A stretch of DNA of 22,162 nt, taken from the IMG/VR virus record IMGVR_UViG_2711768033_000004; one strand, given 5' to 3'. Of this stretch, positions 1 to 22,162 are shown piece by piece. The notes below the pieces were generated by a model. That model was not told the origin of the DNA. It ran no database searches and saw only the letters and a list, made by a program, of their open reading frames with translations. The translations under genes and the position numbers were made by a program. The DNA comes from a virus (Duplodnaviria; Heunggongvirae; Uroviricota; Caudoviricetes). The number at the start of each line of letters is the position of its first letter. The stretch's first letter is position 1.

Positions 1-284
1 TATTCGGTGAACGCACTATGGCGACGCTGGGGCGTCTTATGAGCCTGCTGTCACCCTTTGACGTGGTGATATGGATGACGGATGGCTGGCCGCTGTATGA
101 ATCCCGCCTGAAGGGAAAGCTGCACGTAATCAGCAAGCGATATACGCAGCGAATTGAGCGGCATAACCTGAATCTGAGGCAGCACCTGGCACGGCTGGGA
201 CGGAAGTCGCTGTCGTTCTCAAAATCGGTGGAGCTGCATGACAAAGTCATCGGGCATTATCTGAACATAAAACACTATCAATAA
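1..284 (+). CDS. insB: IS1 transposase InsB, C-terminal part (5' end outside window)
   Basis: The frame is open from the window edge. Translation [55 protein letters not shown]...IKHYQ is the InsB C-terminus; TAA stop at 282-284. Confidence 0.9.
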
Positions 285-299
285 GTTGGAGTCATTACC
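1..299 (+). mobile_element. IS1 insertion sequence, right-hand 299 bp only (rest lies upstream of the window)
   Basis: The sequence matches the IS1 3' portion as I recall it, ending in the terminal inverted repeat ...AAGTTGGAGTCATTACC at 283-299. It contains the C-terminal InsB reading frame. Confidence 0.92.
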
Positions 300-323
300 A
301 TTGAAGCTGTTGAAAGCTTCTTA

Positions 324-1166: not shown

Positions 1167-1566
1167 TAATATTATCTTCATTGAGACTACCAGAGCCAGG
1201 AGCACACAGATTCTTTTAACTTAGAGCAATGGCATATTAACCATTCCCAGCTATCCATTGATTAGGGCCTTCGTCTGTTGCAGAACACTGGAACTTCCTC
1301 TCCTCGCTCACAGCAGACCTTTGGCCCAGTGAGCTTGTCCGCTCTGTGCCAGAAACGGAAGTTGGGGTGATAGCCTTCAAAATAGCAAATTAAATCGAAG
1401 AGAGAAGAAGGTAATCAATAAATAATACAATAAGTTAGAAACGCTTGAGATTTCTTTTTACTCTTCCAGCACATATACATGCAGTCAGGAGTGGGCTACA
1501 GCGCTCATGCCTAACGGCCAGATAGCACAGGGAAGGCATACAGTGGCACCGTATGCCTATCTGTTA

Positions 1567-2946: not shown

Positions 2947-3450
2947 CCTTGCATGAATTACGTTGTATTTGCATTATGCCAGAACTGGTGAATTATTAAA
3001 CATTTCGCGAGCTGTGCCCCGCTGTTACACAGAACGTTGTTAGCAATGTCCGCAGTTCGCTCAAAGCTACCTTCCAGTTTAACTGGGTATTGGTTGCATT
3101 TTTGTTAGAGATATCCAAGTAAAATGCGAATGGGTAGCCAAGTCAATGCAAATTCCCAAATGGACGACTAAACGCGTTTGAATGCCTGTGTATGTTGTTG
3201 TAGTAACATCCTTTCAACCTAACCGTGCAGGCCTGACAACGTCCGTAACAAGAAGTAGAAATATTGCTCAAAAGGCAAGATAGGCGGGAGCTAAAAGGTA
3301 ACACGTGCTGTTAGCATACCCTTGCATTGAGCCACAAACAATCTCACTGGACTTGCCACAATTTTGCCACACCTACAACGCGCAAAATTGCACATTAGTG
3401 TTAAACAAAGCAAAACACTGCAATAGTAACTTGATGATTTTACGAGAAAA

Positions 3451-3470
3451 GATGGTGCCGATAATAGGAG
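3451..3470. repeat. att-site direct repeat (gatggtgccgataataggag); 18 nt are the complement of the tRNA-Thr 3' end
   Basis: 20/20 identity with 16112-16131. It includes the complement of ...CTCCTATTATCGGCACCA, the acceptor 3' strand plus CCA. Confidence 0.6.
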
Positions 3471-3571
3471 CAAAACATGCACATAACAAACTGAAAAACA
3501 AGAAAATAATAATTTATTTAAAATGATATGCCCCCATACATGCCCCACAATTTAGTTCCATTTACAGCTCT

Positions 3572-3681
3572 GGAAGCATGGGAAGCATGGGAAGCATGGG
3601 AAGCATGGGAAGCATGGGAAGCATGGGAAGCATGGGAAGCATGGGAAGCATGGGAAGCATGGGAAGCATGGGAAGCATGGG
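3572..3681. repeat. perfect tandem repeat, 9-bp unit GGAAGCATG x 12 (plus 2 nt)
   Basis: Counted directly in the sequence: twelve identical consecutive units with no degenerate copies. No stop codon in any frame on either strand. Confidence 0.95.
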
Positions 3682-3951
3682 CGTAGGTGTGGCCAGTTTC
3701 TCAACATCAGGTGTGTAAGCACCACAAGCTGTTCTGGTTAAGCTATAAACAGCTAGCAACTACTCTCAACTGAACCTGAAAGCTCCTTCTCCTGCTTAAC
3801 AGGATCGGATCTTAAGCAAATTTATTAACTTAAGTTTAAGCAATTAAGCCGATTTCAGATCCAGCGAAATCGTATTACTGCCAACGCAAAAACACATCAA
3901 CAATAATAACGTAAGTATTTTGAAACTGACCACAGTTATATTTCTATCAGA

Positions 3952-5970: not shown

Positions 5971-7238
5971 ATTTTTGTGATCTCAGTGTAACGTTTGAAA
6001 TTGTACTTCCTATAAACTCTATCAACAAAACCTTTTCTAAAACTATTGCGCAATAACTCCTTTCTTTGGTTTACAGTGAAGGAATGTTTCGCAATACTAT
6101 GCAAACGTCCGTTGTTCGATTTAACACAATATAATAAAAAATCATCTAATTGCTTTAAGGATATAGAATTTACATCCAATCTTGCATTACTATAATAAAT
6201 TCCAGTACTAACCTTACCTTTCTCTAATGAACTTAATGATCTAATCTTCCTATTTAAATCTCTATTGCTTGTTAAAAAAGAAATTCTATCTAATAACAAT
6301 TTAAAATCACCAGTTCTATGGTAGGAGTAGAAAGCTCTTGCTATTCTAGTTTTAATTTTTTTTATGCGTCCACGAGATAAATCTACAGTTACTTTTCTAT
6401 ATACACTTAAAGTAGCACCTTTGTTACTTAGAGGAGAATCTATTACAGAAAAAGAGTAACCTAAAAAATCAAATTTATGGAGTAATTTATCTTTACCTGC
6501 CGTGCCTTTGCTTCTTTTGTCGATAAGTGGGGACACCTTCAACTTATTTGTATTTAAACTTAATCCCTTGGGTAACAAACTTTGTATTTGTTTCATTAAA
6601 GTCGATGGGCATTCATTTCCACTTGAAATGATCACCATATCATCTACAAAGCGAGAGTAATAAAACACTTCTGAATGCCGATGAATACTACTATCAAATG
6701 CTGCCAAATATAGCTCAGATAACATAGGACTAATCTCCAGTCCTCTTGGCAAACCTTTTGATGAATGGATTCTTTCACAAGCTTTAAGATACCATTCTAT
6801 CAAATTTTTAGTATGTCTGGATAAACGCCGTTCATCTTGCAAATATTGAAAGAGCTGAGGCAAATCGATAGATTCAAAAAAAGATTTTATATCTAAGCGA
6901 TACACTCGGAATTGTGCACCTTCTTTGAGATAAATTTTAAGCTCATCAATTATTTTATTTCTTTGTTTGGGTAGAAGTGACTCCAAACATTTTAAGTTTG
7001 CATTACAATGTCTAAGTATTAGTTTTTCTTTTAAACAAGATGCGTTGTAAACACAACGTCCTTTGATATTTATTTTCTTTACAGTTACTCCAGAACGAAA
7101 ATTTTCGCTGGCAATTAAAACAGCATCACTGATTAATGATTCTAATTTATCCACATTGTTTTTATTAAAATAAAAACTCTTCTCACTTTCACTCAAGTTA
7201 CGCTTAAGTGCTGATGAAGTAAATGGCTGCCGGTTCAT
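5961..7238 (-). CDS. reverse transcriptase (about 425 aa); first gene of the RT pair
   Basis: Motif A YRLDIKSFFESI, motif B GLPRGLEISPMLSELYL, motif C YSRFVDDMVIIS, LGYSF motif. The ORF track extends to 7322 with a non-ATG start, but ATG at 7238 is preceded by GAGGGGGG, so I prefer that start. Confidence 0.85.
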   Translation of the reverse strand: MNRQPFTSSALKRNLSESEKSFYFNKNNVDKLESLISDAVLIASENFRSGVTVKKINIKGRCVYNASCLKEKLILRHCNANLKCLESLLPKQRNKIIDELKIYLKEGAQFRVYRLDIKSFFESIDLPQLFQYLQDERRLSRHTKNLIEWYLKACERIHSSKGLPRGLEISPMLSELYLAAFDSSIHRHSEVFYYSRFVDDMVIISSGNECPSTLMKQIQSLLPKGLSLNTNKLKVSPLIDKRSKGTAGKDKLLHKFDFLGYSFSVIDSPLSNKGATLSVYRKVTVDLSRGRIKKIKTRIARAFYSYHRTGDFKLLLDRISFLTSNRDLNRKIRSLSSLEKGKVSTGIYYSNARLDVNSISLKQLDDFLLYCVKSNNGRLHSIAKHSFTVNQRKELLRNSFRKGFVDRVYRKYNFKRYTEITKIWL

Positions 7239-7637
7239 AACCCCCCTCACAGTACTATCCTTTATGCTTTTATAACTCTTTACATCGTTGCGCGCAATCG
7301 CATCCTCGCTACACTTGACCACTTAATGTAATAGTTTCAGTCACCTGCATGAAATTGTGTAGGCCACGCTGACAAGTTGGCGGCTCGCTGGTCCCCACCG
7401 CATAATATGGGCATCATCCCTAACAATACTGGCGGTTTTAGCGATATGGGAAGATCCAGACTCTTATTTGTTCACATTTAATTGATATCTCTGCAGGTGC
7501 GAAGAAAAGATGATCAACATCGAACCATACGATTTAGGATACCAAAAAGTAGCGAATCTCCCCCAGCAACACTTACATCTATTGAAACTGACTGAGTTTC
7601 GCGAATTGCGCCAGAATTGACCATTTAGCCCTACCAC

Positions 7638-7656
7638 GTGCGCAGCCCCGCCCGCC
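7638..7656. other. cos-like sequence (candidate P2/P4-type cohesive end site)
   Basis: The reverse complement GGCGGGCGGGGCTGCGCAC resembles the P2/P4 cohesive end GGCGAGGCGGGGAAAGCAC as I recall it, and it sits immediately downstream of the Delta-like gene where cos is expected. The match is approximate. Confidence 0.3.
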
Positions 7657-7856
7657 TACCCATTTCGCTTAACAGAATGGTTTTCATGCACCCCGTAAAT
7701 CGTCTCAGGAACCGCAACACAAGGGCTTTCGCGTCAAAATTGGTGCATGGAACTCATGCGTTTTCATGCGCCATAGACATGCACTCATACGTCCTCAAGC
7801 CAGCCAAGAAAAGGCGTAAAAATCCCGGCTCAGGACCGGGAGTATGTAGGGGAGAA

Positions 7857-8129
7857 TCAGACAGGGATTTGTTGGCGGCTGGAAAGCTTGGATGCAGAGC
7901 CATAGCGATTCAGTGTCTGCCCTTTTTTGTCTGTAGCCTCCTCTACTGTCTGCGTATTCTCTTCTTTCTGCGGGCGGGTGATAATGGTATGCACTGATTC
8001 AAGCGCCGTAAAAGTGCTTGAACATTCCAGATTCTGGCACTGGTAGTACGTTTTCTTTACAGAGGGGGCTTCGTACACACTGGCTCGACAATGTGCAATG
8101 GCTGAACAGAAAGGACATTTCAATGCCAT
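7857..8129 (-). CDS. Ogr/Delta-family zinc-finger late transcription activator (90 aa)
   Basis: CPFC...YYQCQNLECSSTF matches the Ogr/Delta Cys4 zinc-finger pattern. GGAGGG lies 8 nt upstream. The start overlaps the upstream gene's stop (TGATG). Confidence 0.8.
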   Translation of the reverse strand: MALKCPFCSAIAHCRASVYEAPSVKKTYYQCQNLECSSTFTALESVHTIITRPQKEENTQTVEEATDKKGQTLNRYGSASKLSSRQQIPV

Positions 8130-8890
8130 CAGATACCCTCCGCAGCTCGGTTACGTTTTTGTAGTTCCTCACGTTCCTGCCGGATCTTCATTTTATGAAG
8201 GGCTGCCGGAGAAGGAATTTTGCGGAAATCAGCAAGAGCTGCATAATCCGGGGCAACTCCCGCCAGTTTAAACACCGGGTCCTGTTCAGGCATCGCATCG
8301 TTAGCCAGAGCCGGTCTGGTGATATGTTTATGAATAAAGTCTTTCAGCACTGTGTCCGGGTCATTAACTGAATTCACCACACCCACAACAGCACTGGCTT
8401 CCCGGCCCATTGTTGATTTAAGCAGGCTCAGCGTCTGAATAAGCGCTTTTCCATGCGACTGCATGAAGTCTTCCCAGATTTGCTTTGCGCGAATTTCCAC
8501 AAGGGTGTTATGTGCGCTGATATACTGCCCGGCTAATTTCCCGGCTTCCTGCGGTAATAATGCATTTTCGCTTTCCTGAGCAGTCAGCAGCTCATCAAAA
8601 TCCTCAAGCGTTTCACGCCCCAGCGCAATTTCCGTACGCAGTTTTTTCATTTCCTTTGAGACTACGCCCTGACTTTCACGAAACAGCGTGCGCCACTCCT
8701 CATTCAGCGCGTTAGTCGTGGCTTCCATTTCAGCGCGGCGCTGGCGGATTGTCGCAATATTATCCGCTGCCGCTTTCTGCTGACGACGTGCTTCAAGCCA
8801 TGCGTTTCTGGCTGTGTTCATGGTTTCCAGTGCCCGCTGCGTTACAGCCGGAAAAGAGGAAAGATTGTTATTCACTGCGGTGTTGTTCAT
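8129..8890 (-). CDS. putative Sid-like capsid size-determination / scaffold protein (253 aa)
   Basis: Long ORF translationally coupled to the Delta-like gene, sitting in the position of P4 sid and of similar size. The product call is positional inference only. Confidence 0.4.
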   Translation of the reverse strand: MNNTAVNNNLSSFPAVTQRALETMNTARNAWLEARRQQKAAADNIATIRQRRAEMEATTNALNEEWRTLFRESQGVVSKEMKKLRTEIALGRETLEDFDELLTAQESENALLPQEAGKLAGQYISAHNTLVEIRAKQIWEDFMQSHGKALIQTLSLLKSTMGREASAVVGVVNSVNDPDTVLKDFIHKHITRPALANDAMPEQDPVFKLAGVAPDYAALADFRKIPSPAALHKMKIRQEREELQKRNRAAEGI

Positions 8891-9068
8891 GACTTCTCCT
8901 GTCGGGTTGATTCGTTACGTAAATTGTGTCGTGGCTGACACAAGCACACTATCGGTGCTCAGTGTATGGTGGCTGGCACAACGCGCGATTGCGGTTATTC
9001 AGACGTGGCTATGAAAGCCAGCCAGATAAAAATGCCCTCTGTTTCAGTCTGCTGTATGTCCCTTATGC

Positions 9069-9256
9069 GGTGGAACAGGTGAAACATGTGTTACTGCTTT
9101 GTTTTGTAAAGCATTTATATGCACTGCACCGGTGGAACATCGCGGGTAACAAGGTGGAACAGCGGATTGGCTGGCGTTACATCTGTTCCACCTCACTATT
9201 TCAGAAGGTGGAACAGGTTCAGCCCTGTAAAATACGGTTGTTCCACCTGTTTCACC
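9069..9256. repeat. iteron cluster: about 8 copies of GGTG(G/A)AACA in both orientations (candidate replication origin, crr-like)
   Basis: Copies at 9069, 9078, 9131, 9153 and 9207 on the + strand, and inverted at 9184, 9239 and 9248, immediately downstream of the primase gene. P4 ori/crr carry comparable TGTTCACC-type iterons bound by the alpha protein. Confidence 0.65.
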
Positions 9257-9290
9257 TGTTACCCTTAATAAATAAGACTCACGCAAAGCC

Positions 9291-11963
9291 TTAACCCGGC
9301 ACCTTGCTGTTGAAGACATAGAGCCTGCGGGGATTCATCTCTGGCGGGCGAATGGTTGTCTGGAGTTTGCCATCAGTGGAGGGGAGCAGGTATCCACGAT
9401 CTGCGCACAGACGCGCCACCTTGCGCGGGTCAAATCCCCTGCAGATTTCTTTCCAGCCGGACGGCATGACATAGAACGTAGTGACAGCTTCCGTGCCCTG
9501 CGCGGTACTGCCTTTCTCCACCCTGCGCCAGCCCACCATATTGCCGGGGCGGTTGCGCTCGTCATACCAGTCTGCAAAGCGGCTGTACTGATTCGCGGTA
9601 AAGAAACTGCGAACCTGCTCCAGTGCGGCAATATCTTCCTGATTGGCGGTGTGCCCGCGATCTTTCAGCCATGCGTTCAGGCAGACGCGGGTTGCCCGCA
9701 GTGCTTCACCCTCAGGCCAGCCGGTGATACCCAGACGGGTTGCCAGTTCACCCGCCATCGCCACCAGTGCAAAGCGATTCACAGCCCGGCCCACCTGATT
9801 GCCTGCATCTTTCGGAGTCAGGGCGGCAGCATATTCCTTCATCAGCGATTTTGCCTGTGCCGTTAGTCCATTAAGATCAGCGGTCAGTACTTTCAGCCAC
9901 TCCCGGAACGGCGAACCGTAGTAGCAGGACGTGGCCCATTCAAGATGCTCTGCCAGAGCCTTGCCGCTGTCGAAGCCGTGCAGTTCCTCAAAAACGCCAA
10001 ATTTCCCGGAATCGCTGGGGATCTGGATCATCCTGACTTCCATCCCGGCAAAAGTACGCTCACCGGCCTTTGCCGCATGTTCGGTCAGAGACAACTCGCC
10101 AGTTGAAAAGAACAACAGGCGCCACTGCTTACGGGTACGCAGCTCACCGTCCGTACCGGCACGGCCCTTGCCCTGACCGTTTGCCAGCATGTAGGCGATA
10201 TTGCCTGCCTCGCGTCCGTCAACTTCCCGGATCTCATCAAGCATCATGGCGGCATCGTTGCGGCGGCTGGCGCATCCCTCCAGCGCGTTGCCGGTGGCCC
10301 GCCATGTCTGCCAGTAGTCAGGCCCGCCGCAGACGGAGGTTGCCGCTTTCATGGTGGTGGTCTTACCGTCTGTCGATTCCCCTTTGAGGTGGTAGCCGCC
10401 GCCGTCCATACCAACCAGCCGTAACAGTGGTGCAGCAAAGGCCAGGCTGACAGCAAATGCCACGCGGGAGTTGCCGGCACAGTAGCGGGATACGTTCTCC
10501 CGCCATTCCTCTGTTGTGCCCGACACGCGGAAATCACGCCCCTGCACGGAAGTGGTCTGGAGAATGACACCCTCTGCACCTTCACCGCTGACCTCATCCT
10601 GCAGGACGTAAACCTGACCATGCCAGCCAGTACGGCTGACGCAGGTCACGCGGCGTTCCGGTTTACACAGTGAGATATATTCCATCAGGCGTGCGCGTGC
10701 CTCGCCGGTGGTGCTGATATAAGACAGCCCGTTAACCAGCAGTACCCGGCGCAGTTCCTCACCACTGCCGCTCAGCATTTCCATCGGCATCGCCCAGCGG
10801 CGACGCTCACCCCACGTATCTTCCCATTCCAGCAGTCGTCCGAAGTTACCGCCATCGGCATCGCAGGTGATTGCCGTCACGCGCAGCGGGCTGCATATTT
10901 TGACGTTCTGGATCTCCGTCTCACCGTTGCGCTGTACCTGCTTTTCATACCAGAGATATTCCTGGGTAAGACGGAACCCGTGCGGCAGTTGCGTGCGGCC
11001 TTCCCCGCACAGTACCAGACCGTTGCGAAAGGCTTCACGGGCACGGGTAATACCGTGCTCCCGATGAAAGTCATTCCAGTCAGCCTTAATCTCTCCTGGT
11101 GGCAGCGTCATCCAGCCGCCAACAGCTTTTGCCGCCCGTTCAGCAAAGGCTCTGCCGGGATTCTCACCCCCGTCCTGAAAATCGTTATCACCGGCGATGA
11201 TAATTTTTACCTCAGGCCAGCGTGCCCGCAGCGACTGCGCCACATTGGGCAGGTTGCCCGCAGATATGGCAGCCACTACGCATCCGGCAGTGAGCTGGCT
11301 TACCGTCAGCGCCGTAGCGTAACCTTCGGTAATCACCACCTGTACCGGTGGTTCAGACGGTAACGGGATGAGCGACACAAACGCGCCTTTCATCGTGCTG
11401 CCGGGCAGTATGCTTTTTTCACCCGTCGGGGCGATAAGCTGTGCACCGGTTACGGCTCCGGTGTTGGTCGTGAGTGGTAACAGCAGGGAACCGGCAGGGA
11501 AATCCTTACCGCTGATATGCTGCACGCTTCCGGTCAGATAGGCCGGGTATCCGGCGAACCCTTTTTCTGTCAGATAGGCGCTTTCTCCCGTGTGGCTCTC
11601 TTTCATCAGCGCCGCCACGGTAAGACCCATGTCGCGTTTAGGGGCTTTTTGTCTGGCAGGCTTAACAGGCAGTTCCTGCACATCCGGCACATTAAGCACC
11701 TGCGCCACCTCCTGCGCAGCCTTTCTGACGCTGTAACCGGTTACGAGCTTAACCAGATCCAGACCATCACCATTGCCACACTGGCTGCAGATCCACGTCC
11801 CGCGCCCGTCAAGGTCATCAAGGCGAAAACGATCCTTGCCCCCACATTTCGGGCAGGGACCGTGCCTGCCGTTTTCAGGTACATCAATACGCAGCATCTG
11901 CAGAATAACGGGCCATTTCCCCCGTGCGGCGGCTGAAATCTGCGTAACCGTCTGTATTGTCAT
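9291..11963 (-). CDS. P4 alpha-like primase-helicase (890 aa): Zn-ribbon, TOPRIM, SF3-type P-loop
   Basis: N-terminal CPKCGG...CSQCGNGDG zinc ribbon; TOPRIM-like IIIAGDNDFQDGGE; Walker A GESTDGKTT. High G+C typical of the P4 backbone. Start overlaps the upstream gene (ATGA). Confidence 0.9.
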   Translation of the reverse strand: MTIQTVTQISAAARGKWPVILQMLRIDVPENGRHGPCPKCGGKDRFRLDDLDGRGTWICSQCGNGDGLDLVKLVTGYSVRKAAQEVAQVLNVPDVQELPVKPARQKAPKRDMGLTVAALMKESHTGESAYLTEKGFAGYPAYLTGSVQHISGKDFPAGSLLLPLTTNTGAVTGAQLIAPTGEKSILPGSTMKGAFVSLIPLPSEPPVQVVITEGYATALTVSQLTAGCVVAAISAGNLPNVAQSLRARWPEVKIIIAGDNDFQDGGENPGRAFAERAAKAVGGWMTLPPGEIKADWNDFHREHGITRAREAFRNGLVLCGEGRTQLPHGFRLTQEYLWYEKQVQRNGETEIQNVKICSPLRVTAITCDADGGNFGRLLEWEDTWGERRRWAMPMEMLSGSGEELRRVLLVNGLSYISTTGEARARLMEYISLCKPERRVTCVSRTGWHGQVYVLQDEVSGEGAEGVILQTTSVQGRDFRVSGTTEEWRENVSRYCAGNSRVAFAVSLAFAAPLLRLVGMDGGGYHLKGESTDGKTTTMKAATSVCGGPDYWQTWRATGNALEGCASRRNDAAMMLDEIREVDGREAGNIAYMLANGQGKGRAGTDGELRTRKQWRLLFFSTGELSLTEHAAKAGERTFAGMEVRMIQIPSDSGKFGVFEELHGFDSGKALAEHLEWATSCYYGSPFREWLKVLTADLNGLTAQAKSLMKEYAAALTPKDAGNQVGRAVNRFALVAMAGELATRLGITGWPEGEALRATRVCLNAWLKDRGHTANQEDIAALEQVRSFFTANQYSRFADWYDERNRPGNMVGWRRVEKGSTAQGTEAVTTFYVMPSGWKEICRGFDPRKVARLCADRGYLLPSTDGKLQTTIRPPEMNPRRLYVFNSKVPG

Positions 11964-12343
11964 ACTTCCCCCTCATACAACGTCACACCGGTACTGCAGA
12001 AGTCATCAAAGGCCGCCGGAAGCGTGCGGTACATCTCCGCCATCACTTCACAGCCGCGCGCGGTCAGTACCGGCGGTGCGGTCAGCAGTGACGGCTCCAG
12101 CATGTCAGTCAGCAGTGCCAGCGCGGCAGCGGCGCCCTGCACTTCGCCGTACTCGTTAATCAGTACGCACTCGATATGCAGCGCAATGGCCATTTCAATA
12201 CGCTCCACCGTCAGGCTGTGCGGACCATACTGATCACTGCCAGTTTCGTTCAGCATTTTCTGCCGCCATGCTGAAGCAATAGCTCGCCGGTAAAGCGCGG
12301 TGGTCATTTCTGCCGGGAAAATGGAAACCTGCGGCTGGTTCAT
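11960..12343 (-). CDS. hypothetical P4-like operon protein (127 aa)
   Basis: ORF in the primase operon with 4-nt overlaps to both neighbours. Confidence 0.55.
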   Translation of the reverse strand: MNQPQVSIFPAEMTTALYRRAIASAWRQKMLNETGSDQYGPHSLTVERIEMAIALHIECVLINEYGEVQGAAAALALLTDMLEPSLLTAPPVLTARGCEVMAEMYRTLPAAFDDFCSTGVTLYEGEV

Positions 12344-12624
12344 CTGGCACCTCCTTCAATCAGTGCGCAACTGTGTGCAATATCCGTCAAATCTGCCCGC
12401 AGGTACTCCATCAGCGCGGCGACACCATGCGCACAGCCAGCGTCCAGTGCTCCGGCCTGAGACGGGTATTCAGAAAAGAGAAGCTGGAGCATGTCGCAGG
12501 CATTTCTTGCGCGGGTCAGCTTTCCGAAACTGTCCTCTGACAACCCATAGGCAAAAGCACCGGTATTGTGTTTTTCAGGCAAAGTGTGGCCCTGAGCACC
12601 GTTGTGCCCGTTTGAAATATTCAT
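12340..12624 (-). CDS. hypothetical P4-like operon protein (94 aa)
   Basis: ORF in the operon; 4-nt overlap with the downstream gene. Confidence 0.55.
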   Translation of the reverse strand: MNISNGHNGAQGHTLPEKHNTGAFAYGLSEDSFGKLTRARNACDMLQLLFSEYPSQAGALDAGCAHGVAALMEYLRADLTDIAHSCALIEGGAR

Positions 12625-12655
12625 CGTGGATTACTCCGTTTTCAGCGGTATTTTG

Positions 12656-13015
12656 TCAGAGAAACTTTGAATAGTGACCGTCGTCAGGCTCAGCAGAACG
12701 CCATATGCTACGCTCCCGCCAGCGGATAAATAGCACAGACGGATGCAGTGTCAGCGGGCCGGAACCACTACCGCCTGCAGGAGCTGGTGCAGGCTTAAAG
12801 AGCGGTACATCAAACAGGCGCGTATACCGCTGTTCAAACCATGCCAGAGGGCAGGAAGAAAGCTGGTTGTCGCTGTCATGACGTATCAGCACTTCACAGC
12901 TGAATTCAGGATTAACCAGCGCCACAGAGGGCGAGGCTTCTATTAATCGGATAATCGTGACCGTCCAGCCACGTTCATGCTGCCAGCGTTCGCCGGGGTG
13001 CGGATAATTACGCAT
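12656..13015 (-). CDS. hypothetical protein (about 119 aa)
   Basis: ORF whose ATG at 13015 overlaps the stop of the upstream small gene (ATGCGTAA). The track's longer N-terminus (to 13045) is probably not used. Confidence 0.5.
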   Translation of the reverse strand: MRNYPHPGERWQHERGWTVTIIRLIEASPSVALVNPEFSCEVLIRHDSDNQLSSCPLAWFEQRYTRLFDVPLFKPAPAPAGGSGSGPLTLHPSVLFIRWRERSIWRSAEPDDGHYSKFL

Positions 13016-13185
13016 GTTCACCTCCGCAGGGAATGCGCCCGGCAAAGCTCAGTACATAGTCCGGGGCAAGTCTGCGCCGCGCTGACCGCTCGTTATCTGC
13101 GGTGATCCTTAACATCACAGGACGGGCATTGCGTTGACTGCGGTTGATCGCCGCAAATAACCAGGTACACTTCTGTTTAGCCATC
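13008..13185 (-). CDS. small protein (58 aa), possibly Icd-like; first gene of the primase operon
   Basis: Not in the ORF track because it is under 60 aa. Translation MAKQKCTWLFAAINRSQRNARPVMLRITADNERSARRRL... with AAGAGGT about 7 nt upstream of the ATG. The Icd-like call is from memory of a similar small family and is uncertain. Confidence 0.45.
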
Positions 13186-13275
13186 TTCGTTACCTCTTAT
13201 AACGGTTGGTTAAATGCCCGATTTGTGTTCCCGCACAATCGGGCATTGCTTTTACAAGCGAACTATACTTACAAT

Positions 13276-13319
13276 GGTAATTACCATGTAGTCATCATAT
13301 TCTAGGGTAATTACCATGT
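13276..13319. promoter_or_regulatory. two copies of GGTAATTACCATGT (perfect 10-bp palindrome GGTAATTACC plus ATGT), 30 bp apart; candidate operator pair
   Basis: Copies at 13276-13289 and 13306-13319. They sit in the divergent region between the primase operon and the RHH gene, and the second copy overlaps the RHH start codon. Confidence 0.5.
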
Positions 13320-13489
13320 CAACACCACAAGAGAAACGTTCTCCACCATTCCAAATGCGTCTTACCGACGATTTTAGGTTGCAACTCGAAAACGAAATGC
13401 GCAAAGATGGAGATAGCGCGTTGGCAACTTGGATTAAAAGAATTTTACGCAAAGAACTCCAATCACGCGGGATTGACCCTAAAGGCTAA
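13316..13489 (+). CDS. small ribbon-helix-helix (Arc/CopG-like) DNA-binding protein (57 aa)
   Basis: Not in the ORF track because it is under 60 aa. Translation MSTPQEKRSPPFQMRLTDDFRLQLENEMRKDGDSALATWIKRILRKELQSRGIDPKG has a strand-helix-helix pattern. Its start lies inside the operator repeat. Confidence 0.45.
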   Translation: MSTPQEKRSPPFQMRLTDDFRLQLENEMRKDGDSALATWIKRILRKELQSRGIDPKG

Positions 13490-13521
13490 TCAGTTAAATA
13501 TTACTAACTATCAATTAAGGC

Positions 13522-13812
13522 TTAGGGAGTAGGTGATAATCTATTCCCTTTATTAATTGCTCTTGCCTTATTTCTCATTCCCTCAAAATGTTGACCTGAG
13601 TTTTCTTCAAACCCATCTCGCCACTTATAATAATCAGCAGCGCGCCATCGTGACATCCGACCTATTTTTATAGGTTTTGGAAAGCGATTCAGAGAAATCA
13701 ATCGATAAATCCATTTATCACTTAATAAACAATCGGAAGTAATAAACTTCATATCGATCAGAGAATCCATTGAAGGTCGTTGCAAAGTAGTATTATCATG
13801 TTTAGATAACAT
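13522..13812 (-). CDS. AlpA-family phage transcriptional regulator / excisionase-like protein (96 aa)
   Basis: KWIYRLISLNRFPKPIKIGRMSRWRAADYYKWRD matches the AlpA pattern (...IYRLI...FPKPIKLG.R...W...EW). GGAG lies 8 nt before the ATG. Confidence 0.7.
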   Translation of the reverse strand: MLSKHDNTTLQRPSMDSLIDMKFITSDCLLSDKWIYRLISLNRFPKPIKIGRMSRWRAADYYKWRDGFEENSGQHFEGMRNKARAINKGNRLSPTP

Positions 13813-13937
13813 TCATCATTCTCCGTTTATCTAAGTCTATTGGCTTCAACACGGAAAATTAAAACATAGGTTATAAATGAGAAAAATGTGACTAATGAAA
13901 AAAATCCAAAATCATTAGCCACAATAATTGTTAATAT

Positions 13938-14762
13938 TTAGTTAAACTTAATGTTTTTCATGCAACTACGTAGCAAACTAACAACAGTATCATAGCTCAA
14001 AGGCGGTTCTCCGGTCTTAGGCCAGAACTCACTGGCATGTTGAAAAAGATAATCAGCTATCGCTGCTGGACTCTCTCTTCTTAGCCTCATATCACGATGA
14101 TAGAGCGAAATAATAGCCATGAGTATTTCAGCTCGAGGAACAGCATGTTTTTGTTTTTGCGCCTCAGATTGTGATTTATATTTATTGGCGTTTTTTATCC
14201 GCTTTTGTTCGCATAAGACTATATCAATGAATTTTTGAATCTGTACCTTTGTAATCCACAAAACCTCAAAAAGATAATAATTTTCTTTTTCATCATAATT
14301 TACATAAAGAATTACCTTACAATTTATATTAGGCGTACCCGCCAGTAGAAAATGAATAGGCCAGGAATCCGGTTGCCCCTCATGCTTAACTAACAGATCT
14401 TTATATTCATAATCAACAGCCCATAAACCGGATATGAAACATCGAATAAAACCATTTTTATCAATTAAATTATCTTCATCAGGGATTCTTATAGAACTTA
14501 AGTCTGACAACATAATATTGCCATTTCTATCTCGTGGTAAATATTTCAGATTAGATAAGAACTCATCCATTTGACCATCAATCTTCAAACCACATGAAAC
14601 ATCATACTCATCATCATGGAATTCCATGCATAGCTCTACATCTCGTTCTCTGGCAAACCAGAGTATATCCTTTTCACTACAACCAATTTTTTCTGAAGCT
14701 TCCTCCAACTGGTAGTAATCTCTGAGCAGAGAATCAGTATTATTAATTTTTAAAATATTCAT
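13938..14762 (-). CDS. hypothetical AT-rich protein (274 aa) with a possible N-terminal HTH, translationally coupled to the integrase
   Basis: Its ATG overlaps the integrase stop (ATGA). The N-terminal segment YQLEEASEKIGCSEKDILWFARE looks HTH-like. The rest has no recognisable motif. Confidence 0.7.
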   Translation of the reverse strand: MNILKINNTDSLLRDYYQLEEASEKIGCSEKDILWFARERDVELCMEFHDDEYDVSCGLKIDGQMDEFLSNLKYLPRDRNGNIMLSDLSSIRIPDEDNLIDKNGFIRCFISGLWAVDYEYKDLLVKHEGQPDSWPIHFLLAGTPNINCKVILYVNYDEKENYYLFEVLWITKVQIQKFIDIVLCEQKRIKNANKYKSQSEAQKQKHAVPRAEILMAIISLYHRDMRLRRESPAAIADYLFQHASEFWPKTGEPPLSYDTVVSLLRSCMKNIKFN

Positions 14763-15949
14763 TTATGAGTACCAATTAGCTCAGATAAATAATTAGCATA
14801 CCATTGCATCATTTCTCTTCTCCCTTCGAGATATTGGGCATGGTTATAAATTCCACGAATAGAGTTTTTGTCCGAATGAGCAAGCTGGGTTTCAATCCAA
14901 GCGCTGTTAAATCCTTTCTCATGTAGGATTGTACTCATCGTATGCCTGAAACCATGCCCCGTAACACGCCCTGCATATCCAATACGTTTAAACACCTGAT
15001 TAATGCTTGCTTCACTCATAAATTTGCTAGGATCGTTGCGTCCAGGGAACATCAGCGGGTAGTTCCCAGTTAGTTCTTTCAAACTTTTGAGATGGGATAA
15101 TGCTTGTTTTGACAACGGGACAATATGGCTCCTACGCATTTTCATACGTTCTTTTGGGATCTCCCACACCGCATTATCAAAATCCACCTCTCGCCACTCA
15201 CCTGCTCGTAGTTCTCCAGTTCGTAGACCTGTCAGGATAAGTAAATGCGCCCCCAACAATACAATTGGACTTCCTGAATAAGAATTAAGGGCATTAAAGA
15301 ACTCCGGTAGTTCGTTGGCTTTGAGGAATGGATAGTGGACTGCTTCATGTCCTTGCATCGCACTGGCAAGATCCGGTGCCGGATTGTAGATTGCCCTACC
15401 CGTTACGATGGCATAGCGAAAAACTTCACCGCATCGCTGACGGACTTTCTTCGCTTTCTCCATAGCGCCTCGAGTTTCTATCAACCTCAGAACTTCAAGC
15501 AGTTCAAGGGGCTGAATATCAGCTATAGGTCTGTGCCCAATATGCGGGAAAATGTCTTTCTCGAATGCCTCAATGATGTCGGAAGCATAGCCCTCAGACC
15601 ATTTGGGTGATTTCATTTTGTGCCACTCTAACGCCACTTCTCTGAATGGGTTAAGTGTCTCAATCGCTGCATTTAAAGCCTGCTTTTTGGCTTTTTTGAC
15701 TTCGCCGGGATCTTCACCTGCTGCGAGTAGTTTCTTCGCGTCTTCTCGTTTTTGTCTGGCATCAGCAAGTGTGACTGTTGGATAAACACCAAAGGACAAT
15801 CGTTTCTCTTTACCAGCAAAACGGTATTTCATACGCCAGTAACGCGAGCCATTAGGTTCGACCTGAAGGTATAGGCCACCTCCATCAAACAGCTTGTAGC
15901 TCTTCTCTTTTCCTTTCGCAGCTTCAACCTTGCGGGCATTCAGCATCAT
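14759..15949 (-). CDS. P4-type tyrosine integrase
   Basis: Begins MMLNARKVEAAKGKEKSYKLFDGGGLYLQV, typical of a P4-family integrase N-terminus, with the catalytic region ...HGFRHT... It lies about 165 bp from the tRNA 3' fragment. The track's longer ORF starts at a TTG (16018); I prefer ATG 15949. Confidence 0.9.
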   Translation of the reverse strand: MMLNARKVEAAKGKEKSYKLFDGGGLYLQVEPNGSRYWRMKYRFAGKEKRLSFGVYPTVTLADARQKREDAKKLLAAGEDPGEVKKAKKQALNAAIETLNPFREVALEWHKMKSPKWSEGYASDIIEAFEKDIFPHIGHRPIADIQPLELLEVLRLIETRGAMEKAKKVRQRCGEVFRYAIVTGRAIYNPAPDLASAMQGHEAVHYPFLKANELPEFFNALNSYSGSPIVLLGAHLLILTGLRTGELRAGEWREVDFDNAVWEIPKERMKMRRSHIVPLSKQALSHLKSLKELTGNYPLMFPGRNDPSKFMSEASINQVFKRIGYAGRVTGHGFRHTMSTILHEKGFNSAWIETQLAHSDKNSIRGIYNHAQYLEGRREMMQWYANYLSELIGTHK

Positions 15950-16113
15950 TGGGGGCACATTTCCTAGACCGAACAGAACATGCCCCTGATTGTGCCCCCA
16001 ACCGCGTGTTGATTTCAAGAGACAAGGGTTGACCTCAAACGTATGAAAACAACGTAATATATATGTTTTTAAATGATTTTGTTGATGTGGGTTGACTTGG
16101 GAAAACTAGGTGA

Positions 16114-16159
16114 TGGTGCCGATAATAGGAGTCGAACCTACGACCTTCGCATTACGAAT
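16114..16159 (-). repeat. partial tRNA-Thr(CGU) (thrW-like) 3' portion, 46 nt from the anticodon loop to CCA; att remnant, not a functional tRNA
   Basis: The reverse complement reads ATTCGTAATGCGAAGGTCGTAGGTTCGACTCCTATTATCGGCACCA: anticodon CGT, T-loop TTCGACT, acceptor 3' strand and CCA. The sequence 5' of this does not match a tRNA, so no cloverleaf can form. Confidence 0.8.
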
Positions 16160-16411
16160 TATAAGAATCCGCTTCTAATTCAAAGCATTACCCCATCAAC
16201 ACTGCGCTCACACGTCCCACCACATCAAAACATGTAAAGCCTTGCAAGCCATTGTGAGGCCTTATGTGTCTCAGTTTTGTCCCACCTTGTATTACGACTT
16301 GCATAGCCAATGAAGATCAACGTGACGACAAACGGCGCAGCAGTCTTCTTTTCCTTCATACTTTCCCTTCCCCTTCCCCACCATGCATACTTTTCTGCCA
16401 TAACTAAAGTG

Positions 16412-16441
16412 AATGCCTGTTATAAGCAATAAACAGGCATT
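16412..16441. other. perfect 10-bp inverted repeat (AATGCCTGTT / AACAGGCATT) with a 10-nt loop
   Basis: Read directly from the sequence. It lies about 110 bp downstream of the 1484-aa gene. No T-tract follows on either strand, so it is not a canonical intrinsic terminator. Confidence 0.4.
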
Positions 16442-16549
16442 AGCGCCGCTAGCATATTAGCTACCATTCGACTGCCACACTTAAGATTGATTTCTTAAGT
16501 ATAACCCGGTTTCTAATACCACTTATATATTCAGCTCTGAGATTCATTT

Positions 16550-19500
16550 TTATCTCGTAAAATTAGTTTTATGACTTCCTGTTAGCTGACTGTCTTCATA
16601 ATAAAATGCCCCACTAAACTCCTGTCGACCATAATGATGACTTGATGTGAGTGAGCCCCCTATAACACCTTTTTCACCTAATAATGTCCAAACGATTTCA
16701 AAACCATTGTCCCTTAACATTGTTAAAAATGGTTCTTTTTTAACAAGTAGATGCGGCTTTGAAGCATATACAGCTTCAGCTGCAAAGCAAACCATAGTTC
16801 CATTTTCATCATTGAAGCTACCCTCTACTTCCCCATTTTTTAAGCCCATCTTTTCAAAGATTAAGTTGCTAGGCTTCAAAAAATTCAAAGCTTCTATTTT
16901 TGATTTGTCGAACTCCTCTCCCCACAAATAATTAATCGAAGTGACACTAACATCAGCTATCTTAGCTCCAGACTCCCGGTCTGTTACCGAAGTCCAGTCA
17001 GAACCACCATAATAATCTGATTTAAAAGACTTAAATGCTTCGGACCAATAGTACTCCCTATTAAATAATTGGTATCTATCAGTACATTCCGGCATCCACC
17101 TGCCCATAAAGTCTTGAGCTATTGCCCAACATCTAAAATTTTCAAATTCTTGAACTTTAACGATATAACTTCTGATCTGATACCAAACCTCTTTTCGTGG
17201 GTGCCCCCAATCATCGTTTCCAATAATTTTTGGTTCTTTCCATGATGGATAACTTTCTAATACTATCCATTCATCACCATTATCATCTTTAACTTCAATC
17301 AAAGCATATGGATTAGTTATAGTAGTAGAGCTTTTAACCCAGTCTTCATTAGAGCAAGTCCAATCAAACACTTCATCATTAAGCCACCACATTTCTTTAT
17401 TGCTTATTTTTTTCGTCCCAGTTTCTTTAAGTAAGATAGTGGGATCTATATCTCTTACGTAAGGCTCCCATGGCCCTTGGTATGGGTTTTCCTTTCGGTC
17501 GTCACCATAACCTTCAAAACGAATAAAATTATCGGCTAGCCTTGCCATGTATTCATAATAAGCAATCCATTGGTATTTTTTACCAATCCGTTCTTGGAAT
17601 TCCTCTCTACGTCCACGTCCAGTTCCTATTTGTTGATCAAAATCACCATGCTTCTCCGGATCCCAACCAAGTTCCAGAACACGATTGAATATAAATTGTT
17701 GAGCTAGTCGAAGATCAAAGTGTTTATCAGTTTCCAGCAGATTATTATTATGATCTAGGTATGGCTCTATTTCATTTTCAAACTCACTTAACAGATCGTA
17801 TGACAATGAATTCTTAAATAGCTTCTTGCTCGCCTTTATTTCTTCCTGTGCTTTTCTACCGACCACGCTACCAAATTTAATTCCTTCACATTTATCATCA
17901 TAAATGAAAGGATCTGTAGCATCATACAATTTTTTTTGTTGGTCAGTTAGTTTACATTTGAAAGTTTTAAAAATTTTCTTACGGTCAATAGGAGTTTCAT
18001 TAAACTTGCAACCAGACCAATCAGAATGATTGTAATTTGTTCCAATGGTATATCGTGAAAAGTCACCACCTCCCATAATCGAGCTCCAGAGTGCCCGATA
18101 AGGTTCTTTATTATAAAGAGACTCTAGTTCCTCTTTTGGAGGAATCTCGTCAGGCCAAATGCTGTTGTAGGGTGGCCTAGTCTTGGATAATTCAATACTT
18201 TCAAGTTCCAGTCCAAGATGATTAGCAAATTCAATAATCTCTCTCGCATAATCTCTAAGTAATATATTTGGATACACAGACTCAGAACAAAATACCTTTT
18301 GGTAAACAGTTTCGGCTAAATATTTTAGTTCTTTAATATTATCAGTTCGCAATGTACAACCCAATGCAACTGCAAATATTCTTTCCCAAACGTAAGGATC
18401 ATTTACACCATAAAACTTATCAATTATTTTTCTCAATACAGGAATTCTTGGCTCGAGTAAACTCACTAAAGCCTTGGTTGAGCAATCTCGAAGTTCTCGG
18501 TTACTAGAAGTTAAAAACCAGCATAAACTAGTTGCAACTAGCTCGATTGACTCATCCGAAACGAAGCTTTTATCTGTTCTGCCCCATGCCCAATCGATTA
18601 GATGCCTAAATGCTGAGTCTTCACTATATTTATATTTAAGTTTTGTAGTCCAACACGAATCTCGATTTCCCAAAGAGTAATCTTTTAGCCAATCATGCAA
18701 GAAATTAGCATTAAAGGGATGGTCAACTAAACCTGAAATAGAGATCACTGCCTCGAGAAAATGATCAAAACTACCTTTAAATTTAAAAACATGTTCATTG
18801 ATGAAAGGTCTGATTTTTTCGAAATCAATAGCCTTAATATCTCGCCATATCAAGCTATCAATAAAGGCTTCTAGTAATTTATGATTATTGCTGAACTCCG
18901 GCAGAAATTCATAAAGCTCTTTTCCATACTTTTCTGGCAATTGAATAGAAAGCGCCTCAACTATTCCCGAGTTTGTATAAAAATCACATTCATCATGAAA
19001 ATATTTTTTCAGACGACCATCTGACTTAAATTCATTTTCGATATTTTCAACATCATTTAATAAAAAATTAACGGTTAAATGATCATCAAACCTTTCAAAA
19101 GCCACATGAACTACTTCCTCAGTAGCATTATCATTATTTCTCACTATGCCTTTAGTCAATAATCCTTCGTCAATCAAGGCGCTGAGGAAATTTTTATCTG
19201 TAACATAATCATTAACTACAGATTGAACCACTGAGTGAGCATCTCTAAGTGAAATACTATTACTACCAATCTCTAATTTGAATTTTATGATTTCGTTGAG
19301 AGCATCTTTTACAAGAGGAAAACTGGGATCGAAATCATATTTTTTTGGCGATGCCAATGATTTATTCACCCCTTCCACTAAAAAGTTAAAAATATTTGAA
19401 ATCCCATTAAACCCAACAGGTACTTTGGTTAAACCATTTTTCTTAATGCCTTCACACAATAACTTAAGAAATAGAGGGTTTTTAAACTCTGGATTAAGAT

Positions 19501-21004
19501 TAGGTGATGAAGGCCTCTCTATATTGTAATAATCATAAAATAGACTAACCGCTTCTAACTCAACATTCTGAAATCCAATATGTTCATGAATTTCAAAATT
19601 ATTTCGCTCAACATTCTCATGTGAAATTGTTACATTTCTATATGTTGTTCTGACTGACATTATCAGACCAAGCCATTCAAAGCATCTGATTTCATCGACA
19701 AAACTGTTAATATTGTCATTCCAGAATTTATTTCCATTACCTTCATTAATAGCATCAATGAAAACCAAGACTCTTTTTCCTGTTTTTTTGCCATATAAAT
19801 TCAGTTTTTCCAGGAATTCACGAGAAGTGATTTTAAGCTGTAATCTCTTGAAGATCTGTGACCATGGAGATTCATCTGAAGTAAGTTGTTGCCCTAGTAT
19901 GAGTAGAGAAGGATATCCAGAAGCAATTCGATTTTTAATCACATCAGCCAGTAAATGAGACTTACCAATTCCAGCTTTTCCTTCGAGAAGTAAGAATGGG
20001 TTGTTAGCCAACTTTACTGTTGTTGAATTAATGAATGTACGTAATTCATTGCACGCATAGTCAAGTTCCCGAAGCATTCGCAGAGTAGATGAATACTTAT
20101 CACTGTAATGCTTGGTTTCACCTACTTGTTCTGACTTTTCTCGGAGTTCCCACAATATTGATTCCGCTCCGCCAATAGCTGTCTGGCAGCTGTCAACATA
20201 GTTATTAAATTTATTTATAGGAATTTGATCTAATTTAGAAAAATTAAGCTCTTGATATATATCCGCAATTTGATTTAAGGACTCGTCTATTACAGATAAT
20301 TCTGAGTAAATTACATCGCAACTATGTAACCTCTTTCTAGTCATCAGAAAATTATCTATATGTGAGTAAAATATTTTAGCAAAATCATCAGTTCTACCGA
20401 GACCATCAAATATCTCTGCTATTTCTAGCTTTACGTTGAGTTCGGGTGTGTATCGGCCTCCCAAGTCAGCTATTGCTTGACTATTTTTTTCATTTAACCA
20501 ACCATCACTCAAGTGAAAAGTTAGTTTGTCATCTATAGACCGCAAAATAAGTTTAACTTGAATAAGCTCTTCATTAATATCGAATATTTTTTCTTTATAC
20601 GTTTCTTCGATATGTAGCTTTTTTAACTTCGAACAATTATTGATTTTTAACGATAACATCTCATAAAAAAGGCTGAGTTGTTGTTGAGTTGGGGGGGTGA
20701 TGCTTGGATATTCTTTGAACTTGTCTAATAATATCCCTTTGTCAGGGAACTCTTTAAACAAGATGTGTTCATTCAACATCTCAAACAATGGTTCAGAATG
20801 ATAAAATGGAATTGCTCCACTTTCTACTGGATATGTTTCTTCAAACTCAATTGCCGTCTCTTCAATTAGTTGATATAATCTATCCACATATCTTTTTTGG
20901 GGGAATAATGCTTTCTTAATACAACCATATCCTTCTTGAGAGATGAATTGATCAATAAGTTTAGTTGCTACATAAGTTGCCACTGTAATTGATATAGGTT
21001 CCAT
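16550..21004 (-). CDS. large STAND / NACHT-like P-loop NTPase (1484 aa), candidate antiviral NLR-like protein
   Basis: Uninterrupted 4.4-kb ORF, markedly AT-rich. Walker A LLLEGKAGIGKSHLL (GxAGxGKS, NACHT-type) at about residue 340; Walker B-like RVLVFIDAINEG. It has an unassigned N-terminal domain of about 330 aa and a C-terminal region of about 1000 aa. Confidence 0.8.
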   Translation of the reverse strand: MEPISITVATYVATKLIDQFISQEGYGCIKKALFPQKRYVDRLYQLIEETAIEFEETYPVESGAIPFYHSEPLFEMLNEHILFKEFPDKGILLDKFKEYPSITPPTQQQLSLFYEMLSLKINNCSKLKKLHIEETYKEKIFDINEELIQVKLILRSIDDKLTFHLSDGWLNEKNSQAIADLGGRYTPELNVKLEIAEIFDGLGRTDDFAKIFYSHIDNFLMTRKRLHSCDVIYSELSVIDESLNQIADIYQELNFSKLDQIPINKFNNYVDSCQTAIGGAESILWELREKSEQVGETKHYSDKYSSTLRMLRELDYACNELRTFINSTTVKLANNPFLLLEGKAGIGKSHLLADVIKNRIASGYPSLLILGQQLTSDESPWSQIFKRLQLKITSREFLEKLNLYGKKTGKRVLVFIDAINEGNGNKFWNDNINSFVDEIRCFEWLGLIMSVRTTYRNVTISHENVERNNFEIHEHIGFQNVELEAVSLFYDYYNIERPSSPNLNPEFKNPLFLKLLCEGIKKNGLTKVPVGFNGISNIFNFLVEGVNKSLASPKKYDFDPSFPLVKDALNEIIKFKLEIGSNSISLRDAHSVVQSVVNDYVTDKNFLSALIDEGLLTKGIVRNNDNATEEVVHVAFERFDDHLTVNFLLNDVENIENEFKSDGRLKKYFHDECDFYTNSGIVEALSIQLPEKYGKELYEFLPEFSNNHKLLEAFIDSLIWRDIKAIDFEKIRPFINEHVFKFKGSFDHFLEAVISISGLVDHPFNANFLHDWLKDYSLGNRDSCWTTKLKYKYSEDSAFRHLIDWAWGRTDKSFVSDESIELVATSLCWFLTSSNRELRDCSTKALVSLLEPRIPVLRKIIDKFYGVNDPYVWERIFAVALGCTLRTDNIKELKYLAETVYQKVFCSESVYPNILLRDYAREIIEFANHLGLELESIELSKTRPPYNSIWPDEIPPKEELESLYNKEPYRALWSSIMGGGDFSRYTIGTNYNHSDWSGCKFNETPIDRKKIFKTFKCKLTDQQKKLYDATDPFIYDDKCEGIKFGSVVGRKAQEEIKASKKLFKNSLSYDLLSEFENEIEPYLDHNNNLLETDKHFDLRLAQQFIFNRVLELGWDPEKHGDFDQQIGTGRGRREEFQERIGKKYQWIAYYEYMARLADNFIRFEGYGDDRKENPYQGPWEPYVRDIDPTILLKETGTKKISNKEMWWLNDEVFDWTCSNEDWVKSSTTITNPYALIEVKDDNGDEWIVLESYPSWKEPKIIGNDDWGHPRKEVWYQIRSYIVKVQEFENFRCWAIAQDFMGRWMPECTDRYQLFNREYYWSEAFKSFKSDYYGGSDWTSVTDRESGAKIADVSVTSINYLWGEEFDKSKIEALNFLKPSNLIFEKMGLKNGEVEGSFNDENGTMVCFAAEAVYASKPHLLVKKEPFLTMLRDNGFEIVWTLLGEKGVIGGSLTSSHHYGRQEFSGAFYYEDSQLTGSHKTNFTR

Positions 21005-21112
21005 GATTAGCTTCTTCCAATAATTAAAATTTTACCAAGCGTTTATGCCTTACAATATGTATTGTATCTCACCGTAAAACATATTTATGTGGTTTTAAAC
21101 CTATCTGTAAAT

Positions 21113-21129
21113 CTTGCCACCTTGGCAAG
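21113..21129. promoter_or_regulatory. palindrome CTTGCCA-CCT-TGGCAAG (7-bp arms) in the promoter region of the NTPase gene
   Basis: Read directly from the sequence, about 110 bp upstream of the NTPase start codon and downstream of the invertase gene. Confidence 0.3.
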
Positions 21130-21526
21130 AACCTAATCCTACATTTTAATATCAGTCTATATAATATAGCCAGTGTCATAATAATCGGGCTTGTCATAGT
21201 TAAGTATTCGCCTCCGATATCCCAATGAGATAAGTAAGTCATCAGTGTTATAAATGAAAAGATCACATTTTTCAAAGAGTTATTATGATGGAATATTATT
21301 CAAAACGCAATGTAGCTGAAACGAGTCTGAGTTTAACATCCGCTCCTAGTACATAGTAGTCCCAGGGACAGTGGCGTAAAGTCATAGATGGCCGGTGGGA
21401 GGTGGTGGAAATCCTCTCATGCAAAAAATACATAAAATCGATAACGGCTGGAAATCATTCAATACTCGCACCATCGAAAGTTCACCAGCCAACCGCGCAC
21501 GATCTTGCATACGACATGCTACGGTT

Positions 21527-22081
21527 TCATTTATCTCCGACCGGAAACTTCTTATACAGTGTCGATACTCCAACATCATAGATGATCGCCACCTTCTGGC
21601 GAGGAACGCCTGATGCAATTAATCGCCCGGCCTGCGCCCATTGTTCTGGTGTAAGTTTGGGACGACGTCCACCAATTCGTCCCTGTGCGCGAGCAACTTC
21701 CAGTCCAGCTTTTGTTCGTTCAACAATCAGTTCTCGTTCCATTTCAGCCAGGGCACCCATCACATGAAAGAAAAAACGCCCCATCGGTGTGCTGGTATCA
21801 ATAGCATCCGTCAGGCTGCGAAAATTAACGCCACGTTCGCGCAACTCCTCAACCAGAATGACCAGATGCCGCATACTACGCCCCAGCCGATCCAGCTTCC
21901 AGACAACCAGAGTGTCACCTGCCGATAATGTCCTGAGCAGTTTTTTCAGTCCCGGCCTTTCGGACTTTGTACCGCTTATCTTGTCTTCAAAAATCAGCTC
22001 GCATCCTGCACAGTTCAGCGCATTACGTTGTAGATCTGTGTTCTGGTCATTTGTTGACACACGTACATAGCCAATAAGCAT
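21527..22081 (-). CDS. Pin/Hin/Gin-family serine DNA invertase (about 184 aa)
   Basis: MLIGYVRVSTNDQNTDLQRNAL... with catalytic-serine motif YVRVSTNDQ, then ...LVVWKLDRLGRSM...MGRFFFHVMGALAEMERELIVERT... and a C-terminal HTH. GGAG lies before the ATG at 22081. The 12 extra N-terminal codons in the track are probably not translated. Confidence 0.9.
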   Translation of the reverse strand: MLIGYVRVSTNDQNTDLQRNALNCAGCELIFEDKISGTKSERPGLKKLLRTLSAGDTLVVWKLDRLGRSMRHLVILVEELRERGVNFRSLTDAIDTSTPMGRFFFHVMGALAEMERELIVERTKAGLEVARAQGRIGGRRPKLTPEQWAQAGRLIASGVPRQKVAIIYDVGVSTLYKKFPVGDK

Positions 22082-22162
22082 GGTAGATCTCCCTGGCAAA
22101 AGCAGGAATGATGCCATTTGCTCGTTATTTCTGCATTTTCATAAACGTTGGTTTGGGAGAAG

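Follow-up and report, generated by a model that had tools for sequence, protein, structure and literature searches.

The window analysed here, a 22,162-nucleotide stretch held as a virus record (IMGVR_UViG_2711768033_000004), carries two pieces of a threonine tRNA gene that differ in length. A sequence-only reading took these pieces as traces of a tandem array, in which neighbouring islands had used the same attachment (att) site in succession. The question raised by the locus is whether the fragments mark the ends of separate integrative elements and, if they do, which elements these are and how they came to lie side by side.

The gene concerned is thrW, the E. coli tRNA-Thr with anticodon CGU, a neighbour of proA. 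The longer fragment, at 16114-16159 (tggtgccgataataggagtcgaacctacgaccttcgcattacgaat on the plus strand), equals, in reverse complement, the 3' 46 nt of thrW, running from the anticodon loop (ATTCGTAA) through CCA; no base differs from the intact thrW of WAT, EF7-18-58 or K-12, and past 16159 the identity to the tRNA stops. The shorter, at 3453-3470, is the 3' 18 nt of thrW, in the same orientation as the longer fragment and equal to its first 18 bases. Both had been described as 3' pieces of the gene, of 46 and 18 nt, and so they proved. Their coordinates, and the roles assigned to them below, are as follows.

3453-3470, minus strand: 18-nt thrW 3' fragment, predicted attR of a satellite and its junction with island C
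16114-16159, minus strand: 46-nt thrW 3' fragment, predicted attR core of an SfV-type prophage, its first 18 nt being the satellite core on the integrase side

The 18-mer occurs exactly twice in the window, in direct orientation, with 0.02 matches expected by chance at three mismatches, and two copies were seen in none of 100 shuffles; the 28 nt that follow it in the longer fragment occur once in the window. The exact repeat spans 20 nt (3451-3470 and 16112-16131), which is why the sequence-only reading had begun its feature at 16112. The 20 nt were considered as the true core and rejected, as the extra 'ga' differs in source at the two sites and is coincidental. The copy at 3451-3452 is part of the left island's flank, identical in WAT beside intact thrW, and that at 16112-16113 is part of the satellite's integrase arm, identical in E. 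coli A287. The statement that no intact tRNA is present also stands. ARAGORN reported no tRNA gene in the window, Rfam gave no match there at the gathering score, no copy of the 5' 30 nt of thrW was found in it with up to three mismatches allowed, and nowhere in it is a full tRNA-Thr cloverleaf of ~76 nt present; on re-examination, no intact tRNA-Thr was detected overlapping the fragments.

Between the fragments lies an element (3453-16159) that went unmentioned when the flanking blocks were, correctly, proposed to be separate islands. A287 contains a segment that shares 99.9% identity with 3452-16159, and in that strain the satellite is alone at the locus, with intact thrW next to proA on one side and an 18-nt fragment on the other; the match to this solitary copy begins at 3452. 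The P4-like core genes int, alpha (primase-helicase), psu/sid and delta are found in conserved order, bounded by the 18-nt direct repeats at 3453-3470 and 16114-16131, with int adjoining the latter. By this identity, both fragments are assigned as the two ends of one 12.7-kb P4-like satellite carrying a DRT3 defence system, the 18-nt piece being its predicted attR, and the first 18 nt of the 46-nt piece its predicted integrase-side core. The annotated features of the satellite are listed here.

3471-16113, minus strand: satellite body (A287 identity, Pfam, PADLOC, RefSeq annotation of the A287 copy)
3952-5970, minus strand: Drt3b (PADLOC, E 4e-200)
5961-7322, minus strand: Drt3a (PADLOC, E 1e-130)
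7857-8129, minus strand: ogr/delta (RefSeq annotation of the 99.9% identical copy)
8129-8890, minus strand: psu/sid-like gene (Pfam Psu)
9291-11963, minus strand: alpha primase (Pfam Zn-ribbon, Toprim, DUF927)
14759-16018, minus strand: tyrosine integrase (Pfam integrase domains; annotated as 1191 nt in relatives)

The P4-like family, with its defence hotspot running from psu to att, has been described by Moura de Sousa and Rocha (2021; PMC8628076) and by Rousset et al., cited there; the hotspot is also given as lying between psu and int. In the window, DRT3 (Drt3a and Drt3b) occupies the psu-to-att hotspot, and the satellite shares with its published counterparts the core gene set, a tRNA 3'-end target and defence cargo in this position; it is distinct from them in targeting thrW, with a core of 18 nt. 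P4 itself targets leuX, with a core of ~20 bp. The hotspot of strain NADC1036 (L004, 4437-7883) holds an S8 peptidase and an AAA ATPase, where the window has DRT3 at 3952-7322. Directly downstream of the satellite integrase gene, and overlapping it, is an open reading frame of 274 aa (13938-14762, minus strand) that is kept in all relatives, and for which no match was obtained in Pfam, NCBIfam or PADLOC. Satellite variants of ~92% identity (L001, L003 and L004) retain the 46-nt junction at the integrase side; on their DRT3 side no 18-nt attR was detected with three mismatches allowed, and these variants may have lost the ability to excise.

To the right of the satellite, the evidence points to a phage. 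The reverse complement of 16114-16159, ATTCGTAATGCGAAGGTCGTAGGTTCGACTCCTATTATCGGCACCA, is the 46-base att core of SfI, SfII, SfV, SfX and P22 as printed in PMC3636060, matched letter for letter. Beyond the core, a phage-specific arm follows, with 16113-16284 being 98.8% identical to the int-gtrA stretch of phage SfIV. When the right block was compared with phage genomes by megablast, the pin gene alone matched, and the arm surfaced only in 'distant' mode (16090-16560). Three features are placed in this block.

16160-16284, no strand: cargo-side arm of an SfIV-type attP (98.8% identity to SfIV, over 16113-16284)
16550-21004, minus strand: Avs2, an AVAST type 2 STAND NTPase (PADLOC, 1751 bits; RefSeq annotation in relatives agrees)
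21527-22117, minus strand: Pin-type serine DNA invertase, at the tail-fibre switch of the prophage (Pfam Resolvase and HTH_7)

In relatives, the invertase gene is annotated pinE and is followed by tail-fibre and Mu-like baseplate genes. The whole of 16107-22162 is 100% identical to strain Z0117EC0040, in which it continues into a ~40-kb prophage. This prophage has genes for an HK97-type head and for a Mu-like contractile tail and baseplate, together with lambdoid regulators and a tail-fibre switch under pin control; its integrase shares 99.5% identity with SfIV Int and 98.4% with SfV Int. In EF7-18-58 a 98.6% identical copy stands alone, in the order proA, thrW, int ... pinE, Avs2, 46-nt fragment, yagP'. 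From these matches, the window right of 16159 is identified as the cargo end (pin, Avs2) of an SfV/SfI/SfIV-type prophage, with the 46 nt as its predicted attR. The right block is thus separate, as had been suggested, but instead of a small NTPase and invertase island it is the attR-proximal end of a ~40-kb prophage.

The likeness to the serotype-converting phages SfI, SfII, SfIV, SfV and SfX, all of which use thrW and have a P22-type Int, extends to an identical 46-base core, the SfIV-like attP arm, the integrase of the relative Z0117EC0040 (98.4-99.5% identical to theirs) and the layout, with int at one end and attR-side cargo at the other. The differences lie in the host, which is S. flexneri for these phages and E. 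coli for the window, and in the cargo: the slot beside attR that holds gtrABX in the Shigella phages, a gtrA-gtrB-gtrX cassette for O-antigen modification, is taken in the window by Avs2 on the opposite strand. This attR-to-pin slot (window 16160-21526) is a variable cargo site, with Avs2 here and gtrABX in the Shigella phages; in QDFD216 it encodes a 497-aa hypothetical protein (L003, 20786-23428), and in NADC1036 an AraC regulator and a GIY-YIG protein (L004, 17069-19960).

To the left of the satellite, 300-3470 is 100% identical, in WAT and others, to the segment that directly adjoins intact thrW, and the match to this WAT island, here named island C, stops at 3470. In WAT, island C is alone at the locus and measures ~15.5 kb, with intact thrW at one end and, at the other, a 49-nt thrW fragment that adjoins the yagP pseudogene; its genes run in the order FRG, HamB-HamA (Hachiman), TrbL/TrbJ/TraJ remnants, VbhA antitoxin and a 357-aa integrase. 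On comparison with WAT, the stretch left of 3453 is recognised as the thrW-proximal end of a third, CP4-6-style island, whose own 49-nt fragment should lie further left, beyond the window. The features left of 3453 are these.

1-299, plus strand: right end of an IS1, inserted into hamB and cut by the window edge
324-1166, plus strand: hamB 3' fragment, Hachiman helicase (PADLOC HamB positions 766-1036/1037, E 8e-69)
1567-2946, minus strand: FRG-domain protein (Pfam FRG, E 6.6e-22; PADLOC PDC-S15, E 1.7e-97)

The FRG protein is the last island C gene before thrW, standing directly beside the intact gene in WAT, and PDC-S15 is a PADLOC candidate defence class. The hamB fragment shares 100% identity with the end of the WAT DEAD/DEAH helicase beside HamA. 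As hamB keeps only its last 280 codons contiguous in the window, this copy of Hachiman is probably inactive. The IS1 is represented by an open reading frame (18-284) for the C-terminal part of its transposase (NF033558) and by a terminal inverted repeat ending at ~299, with homology to the uninterrupted WAT island from 300. Of the first description of this side, then, the separate FRG block holds, whereas the IS1 that was counted with it is no part of an att-mediated unit, being a secondary insertion into hamB.

CP4-6, a cryptic prophage of K-12, resembles island C of WAT in occupying the same locus (proA-thrW ... yagP-paoD), and in its two ends, of which one is thrW and the other a 49-nt fragment beside the integrase (intF); it differs in gene content, and IntF and the island C integrase, IntC, are 27% identical over 173 residues. 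In WAT and Z0117EC0040, RefSeq annotates a 112-nt 'tRNA-Ser' (L007, 7562-7673; L008, 14695-14806). This consists of the 49-nt thrW fragment joined to sequence unrelated to it; ARAGORN detects no tRNA at this place, and the annotation is probably an artefact.

Each of the three blocks is therefore found alone at thrW in some complete genome (A287, WAT and EF7-18-58), and at least two direct copies of the att sequence separate them in the window. This bears out the proposal of separate elements sharing one tRNA target, and the window very probably lies within a tandem array formed by three integrative elements at the 3' end of thrW. A narrower reading would keep only the satellite as a discrete element and treat both flanks as ordinary variable chromosome downstream of thrW, the gene having been truncated by some other event. 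Neither flanking block has an integrase in the window, as that reading would have it, but in relatives the right block leads into a complete SfV-type prophage with int beside thrW, and the left block into an island that has an integrase and a 49-nt att fragment of its own, and the SfIV attP arm lies immediately right of 16159; we regard it as very unlikely.

It is scarcely credible, moreover, that the fragments are what deletion or IS-mediated rearrangement left of tRNA-Thr genes, as opposed to att sites made by site-specific integration. An IS1 is present in the window, and IS-linked rearrangement is seen at the locus in relatives; against this, the IS1 lies 3.1 kb away, inside hamB, both fragments begin exactly at the CCA end of the tRNA, run in the same direction and match the boundaries of the solitary elements to the base, the length of 46 nt is that of the published att core, and the fragment ends are invariant between genomes that carry the same elements.

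That the unequal fragment lengths stem from different elements is supported by the integrases. Among the thrW loci compared, 18 nt goes with the P4-like integrase, 42 nt with that of a further island (island D), 46 nt with the SfV type, and 49 nt with both IntC and K-12 IntF; these integrases are less than 33% identical to one another. The 42-nt fragment, a fourth core length at thrW, ends a further thrW island of Z0117EC0040 (L006, 7846-19921), which encodes, besides a 645-aa integrase, a serine recombinase and proteins of the TIGR04141 and NIPSNAP types.

When an element integrates into the 3' end of a tRNA gene, the gene is restored on one flank of the element, and the other flank retains a partial copy, corresponding to the identity segment of attP. 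In the array, the tyrosine integrase of each element would have recombined its own attP with thrW, so that the tRNA was rebuilt on the proA side, and the far side kept a 3' copy as long as that identity segment. Outward from thrW, a direction that runs from right to left in the window, the succession would then be intact thrW, the prophage (22162-16160) and its 46-nt attR, followed by the P4-like satellite with DRT3, its 18-nt attR, the end of island C (FRG, Hachiman) and, beyond the window, the 49-nt fragment. The element boundaries and their structure can be read directly, and the window ends inside the prophage, before its integrase and any intact tRNA. From relatives with distal ends 98.6-100% identical to that of the window, namely EF7-18-58 (thrW-int) and Z0117EC0040 (SfIV-like int), and taking the length of the prophage in Z0117EC0040, we infer that intact thrW probably lies ~35-40 kb to the right, past the prophage. 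In Z0117EC0040 itself, island C is followed by an ISVsa5 and gltS junction; rearrangements of this kind at the thrW locus mean that the distal end in the genome from which the window came could differ.

The order of arrival is likewise inferred. If each element entered at an intact gene, island C would have come first, the satellite second and the phage third, a succession modelled on SfI, which used the attL/thrW site of a resident SfX. The array could also be real and have formed in another order, with the SfV-type phage settling first, beside island C, before the satellite entered the phage's 46-nt attR instead of intact thrW. This history is possible, though we think it unlikely: the 46-nt fragment holds the whole 18-nt core, the final structure is the same under both histories, and the junction of P4 integrase, 46 nt and phage arm recurs in about a dozen genomes with different prophages, whereas in the only case studied by experiment the second phage entered at attL with intact thrW. 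The sequence carries nothing that distinguishes the two. Z0117EC0040, in which an SfV-type int stands beside a 49-nt fragment and island C, was considered as proof of integration into a partial att site, and rejected because late entry of island C into intact thrW gives the same layout.

With entry at the intact gene as the preferred history, the closest precedent is the tandem formed when infection with SfX was followed by SfI, in which SfI integrated at the attL/thrW of the resident SfX to give tandem prophages with att at both ends (Sun et al. 2011; PMC3306764). Successive entry, head-to-tail elements and att copies between them are common to both; in that case there were two phages with one shared 46-bp core, as against three elements with unrelated integrases and cores of 18, 46 and 49 nt here. 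PMC7545054 lists thrW with the tDNAs that are targeted most often in E. coli, and tandem integration at this gene is real, ordinary and already well described. A literature search found no paper tying thrW to defence systems or a defence hotspot, and one for thrW with CP4-6 integration gave nothing useful.

Among 5,426 complete E. coli genomes, the full-length junction of satellite, 46 nt and phage arm was found in about a dozen, with differing prophages behind it, and that of island C, 18 nt and satellite in none; no genome covered at least 80% of the window. As the island C junction is absent from all 5,426, the three-element combination is without an independent copy there: every element and att core is already known, and this particular combination is new to the collection. 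The value of the result lies mainly in annotation, in that it supplies base-exact boundaries for three mobile elements, and the fragments explain both the sharp steps in G+C content and the clustering of defence genes (Avs2, DRT3, FRG, Hachiman) in the window. It provides a clean example of a defence island built through successive insertions at one tRNA gene; with mechanism and elements described before, no open question is made newly testable by it.

Every att fragment contains the 18-nt core, and those of 46 and 49 nt also contain the SfV-type core, which makes excision of composite units conceivable. That the array indeed excises or moves in such units, for example satellite with prophage or island C with satellite, shuffling four defence systems (Hachiman, FRG/PDC-S15, DRT3 and Avs2) as one module, we consider improbable. 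If it were true, the recurrent junction of satellite, 46 nt and phage could reflect more than a shared target, namely a functional partnership.

A last observation concerns thrW in A287 (L005, 20717-20792), which carries a compensatory change in the T-stem: counted from the 3' end, nt 13 is G and nt 27 is C, so that a U-A pair is replaced by G-C. The attR of the A287 satellite (L005, 8002-8019) has the standard T at nt 13, and if the G/C allele is that of the A287 host, strand exchange by the satellite integrase would fall within the first 12 nt. Alternatively, the allele might have been imported by elements with cores of 46-49 nt; it is present in 411 of 5,384 records.
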